A stretch of 32,707 nt of DNA from an uncultured Ruminococcus sp. GTDB lineage: Bacteria > Bacillota > Clostridia > Oscillospirales > Ruminococcaceae. Under the pieces are notes generated by a model that saw nothing but the letters and a program-made list of their open reading frames with translations, ran no database searches and was not told the DNA's origin. A program made the translations under genes and the position numbers. The stretch's first letter is position 1. Each line of letters begins with the position of its first letter. The stretch lies in the NCBI GenBank assembly GCA_964425035.1, contig CAYRLM010000001.1, positions 1 to 32,707 on the forward strand, in the 5' to 3' direction. Below, piece by piece: positions 1 to 8,633 of this stretch.

Positions 1-1180
1 TGATTTGAATCATTTTGTCCCGCTCGATTTCCAATGCTTCGATTTCTTCGTCCATATTCCTCAACACAGAAACTATTGCTTTCTGCTCGTCAATATCAGC
101 AGGGATACACAATTCCGTTTCTCCAAAAGATTTTTTAGAGACAGATGAAACCTTGATACCCGTAATATATGGGTAAAGCTGATCATGATAAATCGAAGAA
201 TTCATGTAATATCCTAAGAATCCTTCAGCTGTTTCAAAATTCGGACGGCAGACCACAGTATGAAGTCCACCCACAAGTGGAATGGATATTTTCCCGACTT
301 GCACTACTTTCCCAACAGTTGCGTCCTCAGCGGTATCTGCAATTAAAACATCATGTGTTTGTAGATAACTTCTCTCCTTAATTTTGGAAGCATCCTTTAA
401 CCGAGGAATTTCATCATCATCTGACAACACACTACCGTATTTTATTAGGACATCCCCATAATGAATATCTCCTACAGCCCCTCTGTCAGATAGCTGATCT
501 CTTGAGCAGGTATTGTTAGGTAAAACCGAAAAATACTGTTTAAACGAATAAGTAATCCATTCCTTATTAAAGTCCTCCAACCTTGTATGCCCTCGCATCA
601 AATCCTCCAGTGCCCCGTCACGAATGCCTTTCTTTTTCTCAATCAACTCTGCAAGATCATCAATATAGGCATCAAACTGCGAAAGCGTCCGTGCAATTTC
701 TTCTTGTTCTGGTATAGACGGAAGATAGACCAATACCTTTTTAACAACTTCCTTATTAAGGTTCTGTACGCCACTTCCTGCTGCGAACGCTTCATACTGC
801 TTTTGCACATACTGTGATGACAACAAATAAAAAAGGAATTCATCATTTGCATCATTTTGAAAATCATATAGACGAAGCCATCCGTCATGGATACAACCAT
901 CAATATCAAGAATATAGGGTCTACCGAAGCTCATTGAATTCGAAAGAATAAAATCTCCTGAGTAAACGCTTACAGAATGTGCTGCACCCGTCCGAGTTAT
1001 TTTTTCTACCGTTGAAGTGATGTGCTTTCCAAACCGTGGAGCATCTCCTATTTTAATCCAATTCACGCCATTAATTCCATTTGTCAAATACGCTTCTATG
1101 GGACGTGGAGATGCTCCTCTTTTAATCTTCATAAAGTCATTGAACTTTTTTTCTCTCCACTCAACAGGATAAATTACCAT
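1..1180 (-). CDS. hsdS: Type I R-M specificity subunit HsdS (3' end runs off window)
   Basis: Not in the ORF track. Manual translation from ATG 1180 (overlapping the hsdM stop) is open to the window edge: MVIYPVEWREKKFNDFMKIKRGASPRPI...GDFILSNSMSFGRPYI...GSGVQNLNKEVVKKVLVYLPSIPEQEEIA...second TRD...IPADIDEQKAIVSVLRNMDEEIEALE. Two TRDs, each followed by the conserved P..EQ..I helix. Confidence 0.95.
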   Translation of the reverse strand, partial: MVIYPVEWREKKFNDFMKIKRGASPRPIEAYLTNGINGVNWIKIGDAPRFGKHITSTVEKITRTGAAHSVSVYSGDFILSNSMSFGRPYILDIDGCIHDGWLRLYDFQNDANDEFLFYLLSSQYVQKQYEAFAAGSGVQNLNKEVVKKVLVYLPSIPEQEEIARTLSQFDAYIDDLAELIEKKKGIRDGALEDLMRGHTRLEDFNKEWITYSFKQYFSVLPNNTCSRDQLSDRGAVGDIHYGDVLIKYGSVLSDDDEIPRLKDASKIKERSYLQTHDVLIADTAEDATVGKVVQVGKISIPLVGGLHTVVCRPNFETAEGFLGYYMNSSIYHDQLYPYITGIKVSSVSKKSFGETELCIPADIDEQKAIVSVLRNMDEEIEALEIERDKMIQI

Positions 1181-3864
1181 TTGTATCCCATCCTTTCCAG
1201 CGCAGCCACTACAGCCACCCTTGATTTTGCCGTTCTGTCCTCAATTTCGCCGAGCGTATGCTCATAACGCTTGGCAATCAGAAGAACTCTGGAGGACAGG
1301 ATATTTAGCACTTGCTCAATTTCATCACAAATGTCGGTTTCCAACTTTGCCATCCACTTCATGTCAAAGAGGAGATGCTTGATCTCATCCACCGTCAGTT
1401 CGCTGTATTTCGCCTCGACCTTTTCGTCCAAAGCTTTGCGAGCTTCTTTCCAAGCCTTGTCTGTCTCATCCTTCTCTGCGGATTTTGCAGCGTATGCCGT
1501 CAGAGCGTCATATTCGTCTTTGTAAATCTCCGGCACAACTGCGGAATCGGCAGCCGCCTTGAGTGCAGCCTTCAACTTTGCTTTTCCGAATGTACCATTC
1601 TTGTTGCGAATATCAAACTCAGCCAGTTTAGGCACTTCACGGATGAGTGCCTCCATCTCGTCCATCTTACCTGCATCAAAGAGTGCCACCAGCTTTGTCA
1701 TGGCATCCATAATGGAGGATGTCTTTTTACCCTCAAGTTCCTTAAGTCGCTTGTTCAGATTTGCCTTCGGAATGCTGTCACCTTTCTCGTTCAGCACATC
1801 CTTCAGCAAGCCATCATCGCCTGATTCTTCTTCACGCATCTCATCCAATTCAGCCTCAAGCGAAGCAGCTTTCTCCATCAACAAATTGATAGCAGCCAAC
1901 TCTTCTGCAAAATACACTGATTCAATAATCTCCCTCGGAATTAAAGTTCCCTCGAAAGACTTGACCTTGGATATGTCATCAACGGAGATCGTTTCTCCGT
2001 TCTCATCCTTTGCTTTTTTCTGTGCGTACTCGTATTCAATTTCTCGACCGACTTCGTAACCACCGGCTTTAATAGCATACACATCATCCTGCAATTTTTC
2101 ATTCCAATAGTTCAGCAGGCAGTCGTACACATCGTAATTATCAAGAAGCCGAGCGGATTCATAAGCCTTAAGAAGCATGATTGCAATCGTGCGAATCAAT
2201 TCCTTCGGATTGGTTTCATGCTCAATGCCGAGCAGGATTTCCTTTACCGAATCCCGCCATTGTGTGAATATCGTATCGGTTTCTTTCTGCTTTTCGGCAA
2301 GAATACTGGCATCCTGACCGATTGCGTCTTCAATCTCGCCGGAAGGAAGAGCAAGATTATATACATCATGTGCCTCATCCACGCAGGTGAAAATCTCCTG
2401 TTTCAATGCAGATGAGATATCCCACAGTCTTTTCAACGATTCAATATCTGTACCCGGTATTCCACCCTTCAGATGTGCCGCAATATTCTGGGGCAATGTG
2501 TCATCGATTTTCTGAATATAGCGGGGAACATTCAAATTTCCCGCATTTTGCTCCAGAATATCCGTATACTTCACAAAACGAGAATAACCCTTGATAATAT
2601 CACCGTGAGTAAAGGTCTGAACAATTTTCTCAATATCCTGCTCACGCAGTCTATTCTTGTTGCCATCTTTCTTAAATCCACGGCTGGCATCTATCAGGAA
2701 AATACCCTCTCTGGTTTCCGTATCTTCTTTATCAATGATAATGATGCAGGCTGGGATGCCCGTTCCGTAGAACAAGTTTGCCGGCAGGCTCACTATGCCC
2801 TTGATGTACTTTTTCTTAAGCACTTCAATACGGATGGTTTCTTCCGCATTGCCTCTGAACAGTACACCGTGCGGCATAATAATACCTGCTTTGCCGTTGC
2901 TGTCCAAAGACTTTAGAACATGGAGAAACCAAGCATAGTCTCCGTTCTTTTCAGGAGGGATGCCATATCCGTCAAAACGCTTGTATTTATCCTCGGAGGT
3001 TTTGATACCATCACTCCAGGATTTATCGGAGAACGGCGGATTCATAACAATGAAGTCAAACTTCTTCAGTTCGCCGAAATCGTCCGTAAAGGCAGGATCG
3101 ACCAATGTATTACCTCGTTTAATCTCACCTGTACCTTTCTGGTGAAGAATAAGATTCATCTTCGCCAAACCTGCCGTAGCGTGGTCTTTTTCCTGACCGA
3201 AAATGGTCACAATGGAATCACCGTTTTCATCCACAGGAGCTTCGTCCGCCGCCCTGATGAGAAGGCTTCCACTGCCTGCGGCCGGATCGTACAGAGTCCA
3301 CTTCTTTGTCGGCATCTGCCTAATCTTTCCGATACCGATAAGCCGTGCTATGATACGGGACACCTCACTTGGCGTATAAAACTGTCCCTTACTCTTTCCC
3401 GATTCCTGTGCAAACTTCATCATGAAGTATTCATAGGCATCGCCAATAATATCATCACCGCTTGCACGGTTGTTTTTGAAGTCAATCGCCGGATTTTGAA
3501 ACACGCCAATCAATCCGGACACTTTATCTACCAGCTCCTTGCCAGAACCCAATTCATCGGGATTGGTGAAGCTAACATCAGGAAGTGAACCTTGGAGTCT
3601 GTTGTCCTCCAGAAACTTTTGGATAATCTTATCCACACGTTCTCCGACATCAGGCTTTCCCTTTGCCTTAATCAAATCATCGAAAGATGCACCTTCGCTG
3701 ATAGTAAACTCCGCAAAAGGCTGTCCCTTGTATCTATCAGATACATATTTAAAAAACAACAGGACAAGCACATAGTCCTTGTACCTTGCCGGTTCCACAC
3801 CGCCTCTTAATTTATTACAAGCCTCCCAAAGGAGCGAATATAATTCAGATTTTTTCACAGCCAT
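1174..3864 (-). CDS. hsdM: Type I R-M methyltransferase HsdM (m6A), long 896-aa form
   Basis: LWEACNKLRG N-terminus, GQFYTP, motif I YDPAAGSGSLL, motif IV NPPF; directly upstream of hsdS. Confidence 0.97.
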   Translation of the reverse strand: MAVKKSELYSLLWEACNKLRGGVEPARYKDYVLVLLFFKYVSDRYKGQPFAEFTISEGASFDDLIKAKGKPDVGERVDKIIQKFLEDNRLQGSLPDVSFTNPDELGSGKELVDKVSGLIGVFQNPAIDFKNNRASGDDIIGDAYEYFMMKFAQESGKSKGQFYTPSEVSRIIARLIGIGKIRQMPTKKWTLYDPAAGSGSLLIRAADEAPVDENGDSIVTIFGQEKDHATAGLAKMNLILHQKGTGEIKRGNTLVDPAFTDDFGELKKFDFIVMNPPFSDKSWSDGIKTSEDKYKRFDGYGIPPEKNGDYAWFLHVLKSLDSNGKAGIIMPHGVLFRGNAEETIRIEVLKKKYIKGIVSLPANLFYGTGIPACIIIIDKEDTETREGIFLIDASRGFKKDGNKNRLREQDIEKIVQTFTHGDIIKGYSRFVKYTDILEQNAGNLNVPRYIQKIDDTLPQNIAAHLKGGIPGTDIESLKRLWDISSALKQEIFTCVDEAHDVYNLALPSGEIEDAIGQDASILAEKQKETDTIFTQWRDSVKEILLGIEHETNPKELIRTIAIMLLKAYESARLLDNYDVYDCLLNYWNEKLQDDVYAIKAGGYEVGREIEYEYAQKKAKDENGETISVDDISKVKSFEGTLIPREIIESVYFAEELAAINLLMEKAASLEAELDEMREEESGDDGLLKDVLNEKGDSIPKANLNKRLKELEGKKTSSIMDAMTKLVALFDAGKMDEMEALIREVPKLAEFDIRNKNGTFGKAKLKAALKAAADSAVVPEIYKDEYDALTAYAAKSAEKDETDKAWKEARKALDEKVEAKYSELTVDEIKHLLFDMKWMAKLETDICDEIEQVLNILSSRVLLIAKRYEHTLGEIEDRTAKSRVAVVAALERMGYKW

Positions 3865-3918
3865 AGCCCTCTTTAATCTCCATTCTTGCTTTAATCATTG
3901 TTGTGGACGTGCCGTCCT

Positions 3919-4113
3919 TCATTCCATTGCACTTTTTCCGCTCGCGACCCAATTGTCTAATTCGGAGCATTTAAACTTCCATTGCTTTCCTATTTTGTGA
4001 GCTGGAATCCCTTTGTCCTTTCTAATCCAATCCCGAATGGTTCCGGGCTTGACACCCAGATATTCTGCGGCTTCATCAATGTTAATCCATTTATTGTTAG
4101 TGACATCTGCCAT
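3919..4113 (-). CDS. Excisionase-like (HTH_17/MerR-like) DNA-binding protein
   Basis: 64 aa, WINIDEAAEYLGVKPGTIRDWIR...IPAHKIGKQWKFKCSELDNW; GGAGG RBS upstream. Confidence 0.9.
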   Translation of the reverse strand: MADVTNNKWINIDEAAEYLGVKPGTIRDWIRKDKGIPAHKIGKQWKFKCSELDNWVASGKSAME

Positions 4114-4418: not shown

Positions 4419-4480
4419 AAAATTGGAATACCACACATCTATCCTACCTAAACCAAAAGCATCTGGCGAACGGCTAAGAC

Positions 4481-4522
4481 AAAAAAAATAAGCCTTCTGC
4501 ACACCCCTCGGTGTCAGAAGGC
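4481..4522 (-). terminator. Intrinsic terminator
   Basis: GCCTTCTG/CAGAAGGC plus ACACC/GGTGT stem, followed on the minus strand by a long T run. Confidence 0.7.
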
Positions 4523-4591
4523 AAGTAAAGACTTTGTTTTTGATACACCTAAACGGAGAGCCGAAAAGCACACCACGCAATGGTATCGTCA

Positions 4592-4745
4592 AAAATAAAC
4601 CTCAATGCCTTTTTTTGAGTTTCCTGATTGTCACCAAGCTATCTGCCGTATTCCTTACAAATCGGTTCACGGCTTTTGTCACAATAAGGTCTATTTTCAC
4701 GTCAACAGCGTCCGAAATCATAGCATTAAATTCGTTGCATACCTT
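4592..4745 (-). pseudogene. Large serine recombinase catalytic-domain relic
   Basis: Manual translation KVCNEFNAMISDAVDVKIDLIVTKAVNRFVRNTADSLVTIRKLKK, then a frameshift to GIEVYF. Matches the resolvase-domain pattern FNxMIxDAxxGKIDLIITKSxSRFARNTVDSLxTIRKLKEKGVEVYF. Confidence 0.85.
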
Positions 4746-4934
4746 TTAATTATTCCTACACCTTTTAACGAAAAGCCAGAAGGGTGTGCAATTTGTATCA
4801 AAATAGGTCACCTTTCCCAAGAATAAGGTTCATTATGAGCTTTATGAGTAAATCTTGAAAAGTGAACATTGAACAGAAAAACCGAACATTGGAGAAAAAA
4901 GCGGGCATTGAATGTACGGTTTGGCAGCATTAGA

Positions 4935-5208
4935 GTTGAGACGATGGGATTTTACAGGTTTTCGGACTTATTTCCTCAGAGCGCAGTCTTGAGACGATTG
5001 GGAAATTATAGTAGGGACAAGCACATTGACCTGTTTCCGAGAACGTCAGAAGTTGATAAAATGGCGATTTTGAGGTCAAAAAGGGTGTGGATATGTTTCC
5101 GAGAACGAACGGGCTGATTTTACGAGGATTGGCCGATTATTTGACATTCATCTGGAGCAATCGAGCCATGTGGAGTGTGTGGTGTTGATGTCAAGAAAAG
5201 ATAAATAA
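4935..5208 (+). mobile_element. Island boundary: tandem degenerate copies of the rlmD/rumA 3' end (att-like sites)
   Basis: Encodes DLFPQS (4965), IDLFPRTSEVD (5025), VDMFPRT (5087) and SHVECVVLMSRKDK* (5164-5208). The RlmD C-terminal motif is DMFPxTxHVE. TGTTTCCGAGAACG is exact at 5032 and 5094. Confidence 0.8.
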
Positions 5209-5414
5209 GGGTTAAAAAGCCTGTATTTACCATCTTTTTTCGCTCTTTTGGCAAAAGACATCTATTTCACCCGCTCAAAATGCTTGTAAGGCGAAACCAA
5301 TCCAAGAGGAATTTTGCAAGCCGGAAAAAAATCGAGTGAGCGGATTGATTGTCAATCCGGAGATCTGTTTTGCTTACCCGAGCTTCTAAAAATCGAAAAT
5401 TTATAATCAATAAA

Positions 5415-5445
5415 AACTCTCTCAACCATCATGGCTGAGAGAGTT
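5415..5445 (-). terminator. Hairpin/terminator
   Basis: AACTCTCTCA...TGAGAGAGTT 10-bp stem; T run on the minus strand. Confidence 0.6.
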
Positions 5446-5562
5446 AGTGCTTCTCAAGATTAATCTGCATCCAGGACATTTAATGAAAGCCATATATTTC
5501 TCCTCTAATGCAGACAAAACTCTGCAATTTATTCACTTTTATTATATACTACAGAAAAGCTT

Positions 5563-5592
5563 AGCCCTCCGGTCAATTAAGACCGGAGGGCT
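5563..5592 (-). terminator. Intrinsic terminator of the NPXTG-SBP operon
   Basis: AGCCCTCCGGTC/GACCGGAGGGCT 12-bp stem 33 nt after the SBP stop. Confidence 0.8.
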
Positions 5593-5625
5593 GCTTATTT
5601 TATGGGAGGATTAGATTTCAATCAA

Positions 5626-7874: not shown

Positions 7875-8633
7875 ATGAGCGAACTGCACAAGGAACTGTC
7901 CCGCATTGAATTTCAGATGCGTGAGAGTTCAATGAAACACACACCGGTCGAGAACGAAATGCGCTTCTACGACGCTGTGAAACGCGGAGATCTCAACGGC
8001 GCAAAGAACCTTTCCACACCGCTGGGCGGCGTGGGATTCGGTGTGCTTTCTACCGACAAGCTGCGTAATCTGAAATACCATCTTGTAATAACAGTGTCTT
8101 TCATCACACGATTCTGCGTCGAGGGCGGAATGGAACGGGAAACCGCATATAATCTCAGCGACCTGTATATAAGAAAGGCGGACGCCGCCGTTTCAACTGA
8201 CGAAATACACATGATACACACAGAACTTATCACCGACTTTACTGAGCGAATGGCAAAGCTAAACAAGAGCAGCAGCTACTGCTATCAGGTGATAAAATGC
8301 ATGGAATATGTATACGACCACCTGCATGAAAAGCTAATGGTAAGCGATATTGCCGACGAGCTGGGGCTTTCCGTACAGTATCTGTCCAAACTTTTCCGGA
8401 CGGAAACAGGCATTCCGCTGAACCGATACATACTAAAGAAAAAAATTGACGCTGCCTGCCAGATGCTGAAATACTCTCAGTACGAGGCAGTGGACGTGGG
8501 AAACTTTCTGGCTTTCAGTTCACACAGCCACTTTATACAGAAATTCCGCGAGGAAACAGGACTTACCCCAAAGCAGTACCGGGAGAAATACTTCCACTCC
8601 TCCGGTCTTGACGCAGAAATTGATATAGAATAA
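7875..8633 (+). CDS. AraC-family transcriptional regulator
   Basis: C-terminal double HTH: IADELGLSVQYLSKLFRTETG...FLAFSSHSHFIQKFREETGLTPKQYR. Confidence 0.95.
   Translation: MSELHKELSRIEFQMRESSMKHTPVENEMRFYDAVKRGDLNGAKNLSTPLGGVGFGVLSTDKLRNLKYHLVITVSFITRFCVEGGMERETAYNLSDLYIRKADAAVSTDEIHMIHTELITDFTERMAKLNKSSSYCYQVIKCMEYVYDHLHEKLMVSDIADELGLSVQYLSKLFRTETGIPLNRYILKKKIDAACQMLKYSQYEAVDVGNFLAFSSHSHFIQKFREETGLTPKQYREKYFHSSGLDAEIDIE

Follow-up and report, generated by a model that had tools for sequence, protein, structure and literature searches.

Large serine integrases are generally held to need only short attachment sites, with no accessory DNA. They are valued for acting on two sites of roughly 50 bp without accessory DNA, as the available text of two accounts puts it (PMC5595907, PMC2475636). 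The closest described systems are the serine-recombinase elements at rum/rlmD, which include Phi-m46.1, the S. suis rum phages and phage-ICE tandems (PMC4288039, PMC13651849), vanG and ICE-r (PMC4120198), and further ICEs (PMC4701971). In the accessible portions of these papers, the elements resemble the ends reported here in that they target the HVE codons, replace the 3' end of the gene, accrete in tandem and carry multi-recombinase modules; their sites are described as a core of 8-18 bp with short inverted repeats, and those portions mention no accessory arrays. The rum phage integrases are also described there as acting on neighbouring elements (PMC13651849). Three serine recombinase genes per element, as in the elements considered below, are found in streptococcal ICEs (PMC4701971) and in the gin element (PMC5595907); the sections at hand leave the role of the extra genes unsettled, and for gin they report that one enzyme with an RDF is sufficient in vitro (PMC5595907). 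A further parallel, again from partial text, is offered by SCC/SCCmec and the ccr-less islands at rlmH, where the 3' end of an rRNA methyltransferase gene is the target and several large serine recombinases, composite stacks and enzyme-less islands occur; the SCC att sites are two half-sites around GA, and phased accessory arrays go unmentioned in that text (PMC13739063). The rlmD hotspot, tail replacement, stacking, recombinase triplets and enzyme-less islands are, on the portions cited, already known (PMC4120198, PMC4288039, PMC4701971, PMC13651849, PMC13739063, PMC9815147). In the literature searched, which comprised running text outside figures and supplements and part of the Ccr literature, we found no account of phased half-site arrays at such ends.

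The window analysed here is the first 32.7 kb (32,707 nucleotides) of contig C1 from an uncultured Ruminococcus assembly of 310 contigs that is 94% complete (G000). The contig begins inside an island whose other end lies beyond it. An earlier note, made from the sequence alone, had described about five degenerate tandem units resembling the 3' end of rlmD at the island edge. The motifs it listed are present, with GTTGAG at 4935, TTGAG at 4989, GTTGAT at 5052, GTGGAG at 5170 and the tail SHVECVVLMSRKDK* at unit 4. The array is real, and it is made of one true junction and spare half-sites; it is therefore not a row of five equivalent units (Table 1). U0 has a right half only and U3 a left half only, and the left half of unit 4, previously read as a DMFP mimic, is an element arm with GACATYMA 24 bp from the CA. 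The spare copies in the window comprise three of the target's left half and two clear ones of its right half. Unit 4 itself is the true junction, and its element arm, short core and rlmD-type tail are the composition of an attR or attP junction. A public contig joins a genuine rlmD arm (DLFPGTG) to the window's tail exactly at 5167. The tail carries TTGATGTC at +17 to +24, a mirror of the P motif 24 bp after the CA; it may be either the left end of an older neighbouring element or the other half of an attP. Decayed left-end repeats follow to the right of the reported stretch (5257-5353), and those at 5323-5353 stand at the usual left-end positions.

Table 1. Features at the island end and in the adjoining cargo. 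Offsets are given in bp from the CA of the junction.
Feature	Position	Strand	Evidence or remark
hsdS, island cargo, cut by contig end	2-1180	-	Pfam
Type I hsdM, island cargo	1174-3864	-	Pfam
HTH_17 gene, island cargo	3919-4113	-	Pfam
Broken large serine recombinase catalytic-domain fragment	4605-4745	-	Pfam Resolvase, E 4.5e-4, below cut-off
Collapsed 3' remnant of Fic-domain cargo gene	4858-4934	+	Partial alignment to the end of a longer gene, MT837304
U0, right-half-only unit GTTGAGACGATGGGA, resembles rlmD VET codons	4935-4949	+	Outer edge of conserved end
U1, attB-like mimic, left motif at -202	4962-5006	+	7.1 bits
U2, attB-spaced mimic, left motif at -139	5025-5077	+	19.4 bits
U3, left-half-only unit (VDMFPRT codons), motif at -77	5087-5107	+	27.0 bits
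Element (P) arm of true attachment site, GACATYMA motif at -24	5143-5166	+	Conserved in family alignment
CA, putative crossover dinucleotide	5167-5168	+	Right flanks diverge straight after CA
P'-type arm / replacement rlmD tail VECVVLMSRKDK*	5169-5208	+	Near-identical tail on C6 rlmD gene
Inverted P'-type repeat, neighbour's decayed left-end array	5257-5279	-	17.7 bits, P'-repeat matrix; best match in the window
Degenerate inverted attB-like motif and degenerate P'-type repeat	5323-5353	+	Pattern match; 6.8 bits, weak

The units were scored with a weight matrix built from the left arms of 23 real rlmD targets in other genomes, and 3,000 dinucleotide shuffles of positions 4901-5145 served as the null (mean best score -2.7). 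U3 (27.0 bits) and U2 (19.4 bits) were matched by no shuffle, which upholds the identity of the units with the rlmD target, and they are the top two of the six matches of at least 8 bits in the window. The score of U1 (7.1 bits) was reached by 1.9% of shuffles when the best site of each was used and by none when the third-best was used. U0 has no left arm and no DMFP-like half and scores -31 bits on the whole-site matrix. A steady leftward decay of similarity was not confirmed. The reading of U1 and U2 as attB-like mimics is supported: U1 is one base short, with GT at its would-be centre, and U2 has GA there in place of CA and a right part that ends in TTGAGGTC. At U3 the would-be centre is GG, and there is no VE-like right half. 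Homologs of the three units lie mostly at -207 to -219 (U1), at -128 or -139 (U2), and at -66 or -77 (U3), the last pair differing by an 11-bp indel. In the window, 16-17 bp have been lost to the right of U1, which puts it out of phase, and the period of 53-64 bp noted before, present in this copy, is specific to it. The window copy looks decayed, since its U1 is out of phase, its cargo gene has collapsed and no cognate recombinase triplet was found in the assembly.

We searched 185,579 genomes for the U2 motif without mismatch and obtained 21 loci, six of them chance matches and 15 true arrays with unrelated cargo, as the idea of conservation across unrelated islands had predicted. The true arrays come from diverse gut and anaerobic lineages, and the titles of their records name Lachnospiraceae, Clostridium, Dialister, Schwartzia, Moryella, Levyella, Murdochiella, Eubacteriaceae, Ruminococcus, Olsenella and others; the cargo to their left varies, as does the tail to the right of the CA. 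A scan of metagenomes gave at least 116 loci, with further family members and several shorter two-unit families. By BLAST, one record carries the window array at 83% identity with a different tail; there was no match among plasmids, and 60 relatives gave mostly short matches to the tail. A loose three-DMFP pattern on viral contigs was discarded, all 24 of its matches being unrelated repeats. Just left of the U0 motif, 13 distinct upstream flanks meet in 30 family members. The proposal that the array is encoded by the element agrees with this conserved end being kept while cargo and right flanks change. Window-type arrays may reach beyond Bacillota, to judge from the titles of two records: one, titled Olsenella urininfantis, has the array directly behind rlmD and a cargo gene (L069), and the other is a MAG titled Gastranaerophilales that may be misbinned (L074).

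Five elements of window type are complete (L064, L069, L076, L114, L295). They measure 2.4-7.4 kb, run from an rlmD gene with attL to a window-type end, and gave no recombinase match. With attL and attR kept and the recombinase absent, these five homologs are CIMEs, which the text available defines by attL and attR alone (PMC9815147). Enzyme-less cassettes with such ends span 2-13 kb. Like CIMEs and integron cassettes, they are att-bounded, carry co-directional cargo and stack at one site; unlike integrons, they have neither IntI nor an attC fold, and insertion is at the CA junction, not in repeated units.

A coding role for the array was rejected: an open frame across it is absent in 20 of 27 family members and no frame is conserved. 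We considered whether it might be regulatory, with operators around a promoter in the U1-U2 spacer or, as suggested previously, a transcribed target-mimic RNA. Between U1 and U2 the family retains a TATA-rich spacer, one promoter-like match of 9/12 lies in this spacer (L019), and genes follow U1-U2 directly in four loci (L020, L055, L056, L057). Promoter matches are, however, as frequent as in shuffles (one found, 1.0 expected), just 8 of the 27 family members have the hexamer pair in the spacer, with scores of 8-9 of 12, and the two-unit families lack the TATA-rich spacer. The fold z-score is 0.24, none of 17 consensus pairs shows a double change, and the only two Rfam matches are far below threshold and outside the array; a structured non-coding RNA is not supported. 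A regulatory role is accordingly very improbable. Neither of two gut RNA runs, represented by contigs and a small share of the data, covers units 0-3, and they are uninformative on expression. The four loci named above carry U1-U2 without U3 or a P arm (in L020 at 7940-8080); two different genes, each with a ribosome-binding site, begin after them at an identical base.

To look at such ends without reference to arrays, we scanned 401 genomes of Clostridia with the P arm and CA as the only criterion. The pattern occurs at 79 sites in 52 genomes, and its reversed form at 11. We fetched 62 distinct sites and analysed the 57 with 200 bp of upstream sequence. One to three target-left motifs lie within 260 bp upstream in 49 of the 57, and exactly two in 41; the same motif was found at 1/57 on the reverse strand, 0/57 after shuffling and 1/56 farther upstream. 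Some of the eight sites with no upstream motif are probably chance matches, and others resemble real junctions that have no array; arrays may therefore be dispensable. In some minimal ends the target-left motif adjoins the P arm at an offset of -44 (L053, L294, L304, L313).

The motifs stand at preferred distances from the CA (-44, -55, -65, -76, -87, -94, -105, -115, -126, -138 and -147). When 124 arrays were reduced to 39 clusters at 70%, giving 68 offsets, the best period was 10.3 bp (R 0.71), equalled by none of 20,000 nulls, with the limit that the arrays are kin and such counts overstate their independence even after clustering. Unit spacings in the 39 clusters are 28-31, 38-42, 50-52, 61-62 and 72 bp, with one of 79, and loci collected from the recombinase side gave a best period of 10.1 bp from 27 offsets. 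Indels within the window family measure 10, 11, 22 and 62 bp; the exceptions to the phase are a 4-bp duplication in L128, the rearranged L064 and the deletion at the window's U1. A-tracts are conserved in the array spacers. The left ends of the elements are also structured, with one to four P' arm repeats and, between roughly +120 and +170, the target motif in inverted orientation. Of 59 P sites, 13 are followed by P' repeats, as are 7 of 19 rlmD ends, against 0 in the reverse control; the inverted motif follows 15 of the 59 and 5 of the 19. Of 35 spacings between P' repeats, 31 measure 27-32 or 39-41 bp; the absolute positions of the repeats are weakly periodic (R 0.29), and the inverted target motifs fit 9.7 bp best.

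Eleven loci carry a full recombinase triplet upstream of a related array on the same strand. The triplet consists of a full enzyme, a 143-aa protein with the Recombinase domain only, and a second full enzyme; both full enzymes have the catalytic Y.RVS motif, and the middle protein is DNA-binding-only by domain content. Both this middle gene and the phased half-site arrays at the ends set the elements apart from the streptococcal ICEs and gin, whose triplets target mutT, traG and hsdM in the available text. In L074 and L322 a single-integrase match takes the place of the triplet. Starting from the triplet instead (33 loci, after the too short L380 was dropped from 34), we found a downstream array at 13, an rlmD gene faced by the triplet at seven, a reversed array at two, and none at 11. 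Six of these 11 end early at contig ends, and five triplets read over 14-16 kb have no array. The seven facing rlmD have the triplet at the attL end (L357, L358, L361, L363, L366, L371, L374), and an inverted target motif lies near attL in four of the seven. At none of these loci did a triplet share its element with the full window-type array (U0-U3 and P arm); behind triplets, window-type units occur as U1-U2 only (L020, L055). The window holds a broken catalytic-domain fragment and no intact triplet, and the middle protein has no match at E 1e-20 in its host assembly. The link between triplets and arrays is an association by co-occurrence in the sequences compared. A quick protein tree with long outgroup branches, used just for this grouping, places the third proteins of the triplets (c) apart, with a recombinase from C6 outside the clade on a long branch. 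Two described types of site were rejected. In the portion of the paper available, the vanG and ICE-r elements have a GA crossover, and their attR lies within the one integrase gene (PMC4120198); the array ends diverge after CA, 6 bp upstream of that GA, and their P arm lies in no conserved open frame. The active rum phage Phi-m46.1 has the same target gene but a different arm and no array at its right end, and its ORF57 recombinase falls outside the triplet clade.

Taken together, the stretch is probably the conserved right end of an rlmD element, composed of a true junction and CA-less spare halves that are likely to be binding-only sites for the three-gene recombinase. The spare units are copies of half-sites, lack the CA needed for strand exchange with a CA-bearing site and keep their phase with the crossover, and are therefore best read as accessory sites that are bound and not recombined. 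The accessory subsites of Tn3 and gamma-delta res are additional motifs for recombinase binding next to the crossover; in many cases they are helically phased with it, and they build a synaptic complex. Such sites in res are also mentioned in the text at hand of PMC2475636. The ends of IS607 are similar, with extra recombinase-binding motifs near the crossover, a helical phase and a synaptic complex, in the sections accessible (PMC6188088). The arrays show the res-like feature of extra non-recombining half-sites in helical phase with the crossover at the level of sequence. They differ from both systems in that the accessory units copy the half-site of the host target and in that the linked enzymes are large serine integrases, not small resolvases or serine transposases. 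By analogy, recombinase subunits, perhaps the non-catalytic middle protein among them, would sit in the spare halves along a single face of the helix and, with the A-tract-containing spacers, build an ordered synaptic complex, which would license or direct excision and integration as subsites II and III of res do for resolvases. Enzyme-less cassettes such as the window's would keep their arrays so that the triplet of a helper could move them. Binding of the recombinase to the spare units, and a need for them in synapsis or direction, are putative on the same analogy.

The earlier note had also proposed a decoy array against rival elements. The CA-less mimics would then trap the recombinases of incoming rlmD elements, or buffer the element's own enzyme, with no role in its own synapse. 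U1 and U2 are indeed near-complete attB mimics with wrong centres, and the rlmD site is a crowded hotspot in the available text (PMC4120198, PMC4288039). A decoy has no need of a phase relation to the element's own crossover, however, and leaves the strong phasing unexplained; array-bearing elements are moreover stacked several deep (L292, L296, L299, L303-L305). We consider it improbable. Still less credible, and hardly probable at all, is that the units are neutral scars, left at rlmD by rounds of integration and deletion and since transported with the element end. Tandem accretion is common at this site, and the stretch right of the CA in the window is such a remnant, but genuine scars consist of P arm, CA and tail and are separated by kilobases, whereas the units are CA-less halves of the target's left side that hold their phase through indels and recur in 39 diverged clusters.

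The units do not behave as a landing pad either. CA(Y)G is missing from the would-be centre of all 330 accessory units, and CA from that of all 68 cluster-level units; only one of 170 junctions has the look of an insertion within another array, and 526 kb of cargo contain one decayed unit pair, the sole paired units outside a junction. Stacking takes place at the true CA junction. These counts speak against an integron-like landing pad and confine the predicted insertion of elements into individual units to a single case. In that case (L355:11872-11960) the P arm and CA of one element abut the inner portion of an array of another family, in register with the would-be centre of a unit.

Integron-style capture of cargo is a different matter, in which the outermost unit would join new genes by relaxed recombination or as a transposon-like end, and the array might itself take insertions. 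The 45 arrays compared have 40 distinct upstream flanks, all of which join at a single point, where the last motif ends on its outer side; beyond it, 753 of 780 flank pairs share no more than three further bases; T stands at -2 in 36 of 40, and the nearest gene faces the array in 35 of 45. L055 and L056 carry different genes from the same base after U2, and L355 lies at a would-be centre. The joint is sharper than casual deletion would give, these alignments suggest, yet it coincides with the motif edge, and trimming to the part that is needed could produce it; the absence of CA from the units, the single insertion among 170 junctions and the lone decayed pair between cargo genes also tell against capture. 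Its probability is low in our view, and it can be compatible with the binding-only reading. Similar arsC-like cargo ends meet the outer motif of different array families (L232, L235, L308, L014), a pattern that suggests exchange of ends between elements.

A broader form of the binding-only reading, which is possible but rather unlikely, is that two different large recombinases, together with a DNA-binding subunit devoid of catalytic function, assemble at both ends on phased arrays of half-sites from host target and element; the arrays would replace a classical directionality factor, open a helper's machinery to enzyme-less cassettes and capture genes at their outer edges. If phased accessory half-sites are real, they would break the no-accessory-DNA rule for large serine integrases. 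The arrays would also give a direct handle on why elements carry three recombinase genes, making the purpose of the triplet testable; if gene capture is true as well, Bacillota have an integron-like gene-collecting system at rlmD. The design is common, as the 52 of 401 Clostridia genomes with the pattern and the arrays at most fetched junctions indicate, and the arrays mark ends of cassettes that tools would overlook. On an Enterococcus faecium plasmid the lsa(E)-lnu(B) resistance cluster terminates in a two-unit version, and the end of this cluster has matches in 130 plasmid records; an S. suis rum phage record holds an erm(B)/vat/lnu(D) block that terminates in a two-unit version as well. 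Array ends are thus found on resistance cassettes, and the motifs could therefore serve to annotate and track them. In NZ_CP023426 (L384:3957-4052) the lsa(E)-lnu(B) cluster ends in a -94/-55 array, P arm and CA, and upstream of it lies sequence that, by eye, resembles the last codons of the triplet c gene.

The host assembly bears on the surroundings of the window's array. The full rlmD expected to its left is not on C1; the genome has two rlmD-family genes, on C6 and C67. None of 24 related loci compared has rlmD within 1.5 kb of the neighbouring host gene, and the neighbouring solute-binding gene revealed no empty site in 100 members of the genus. On C6 (15524-27542) an rlmD gene with a replacement tail (VECVVLMSRNKDK*) is followed by three recombinase genes facing back and by phage lysis genes; these recombinases are of a different lineage from the array-linked triplets. 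The fragment at 4605-4745 is 67% identical to one C6 recombinase over 37 aa.

Left of the array, the Fic remnant consists of VNI/NIE repeats and the last codons of the gene, and it meets the array at the usual cargo junction of the family; a full-length version is present in L076 (Pfam Fic, E 5e-12). The low-GC cargo at 2-4113 (minus strand) may belong to the same element as the array. A P'-type repeat at 4434-4456 (minus strand, 10.4 bits) points into the HTH-hsdM-hsdS cluster, and a degenerate VVCFS-type tail lies near 4570-4590 (minus strand), beyond the recombinase fragment, within 4434-4745. Judged by these motifs, the restriction cluster may have a left end of its own, opposite to the array. 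On the other side, two terminator-like hairpins (5415-5445 and 5562-5593) stand between the island end and the host solute-binding gene.
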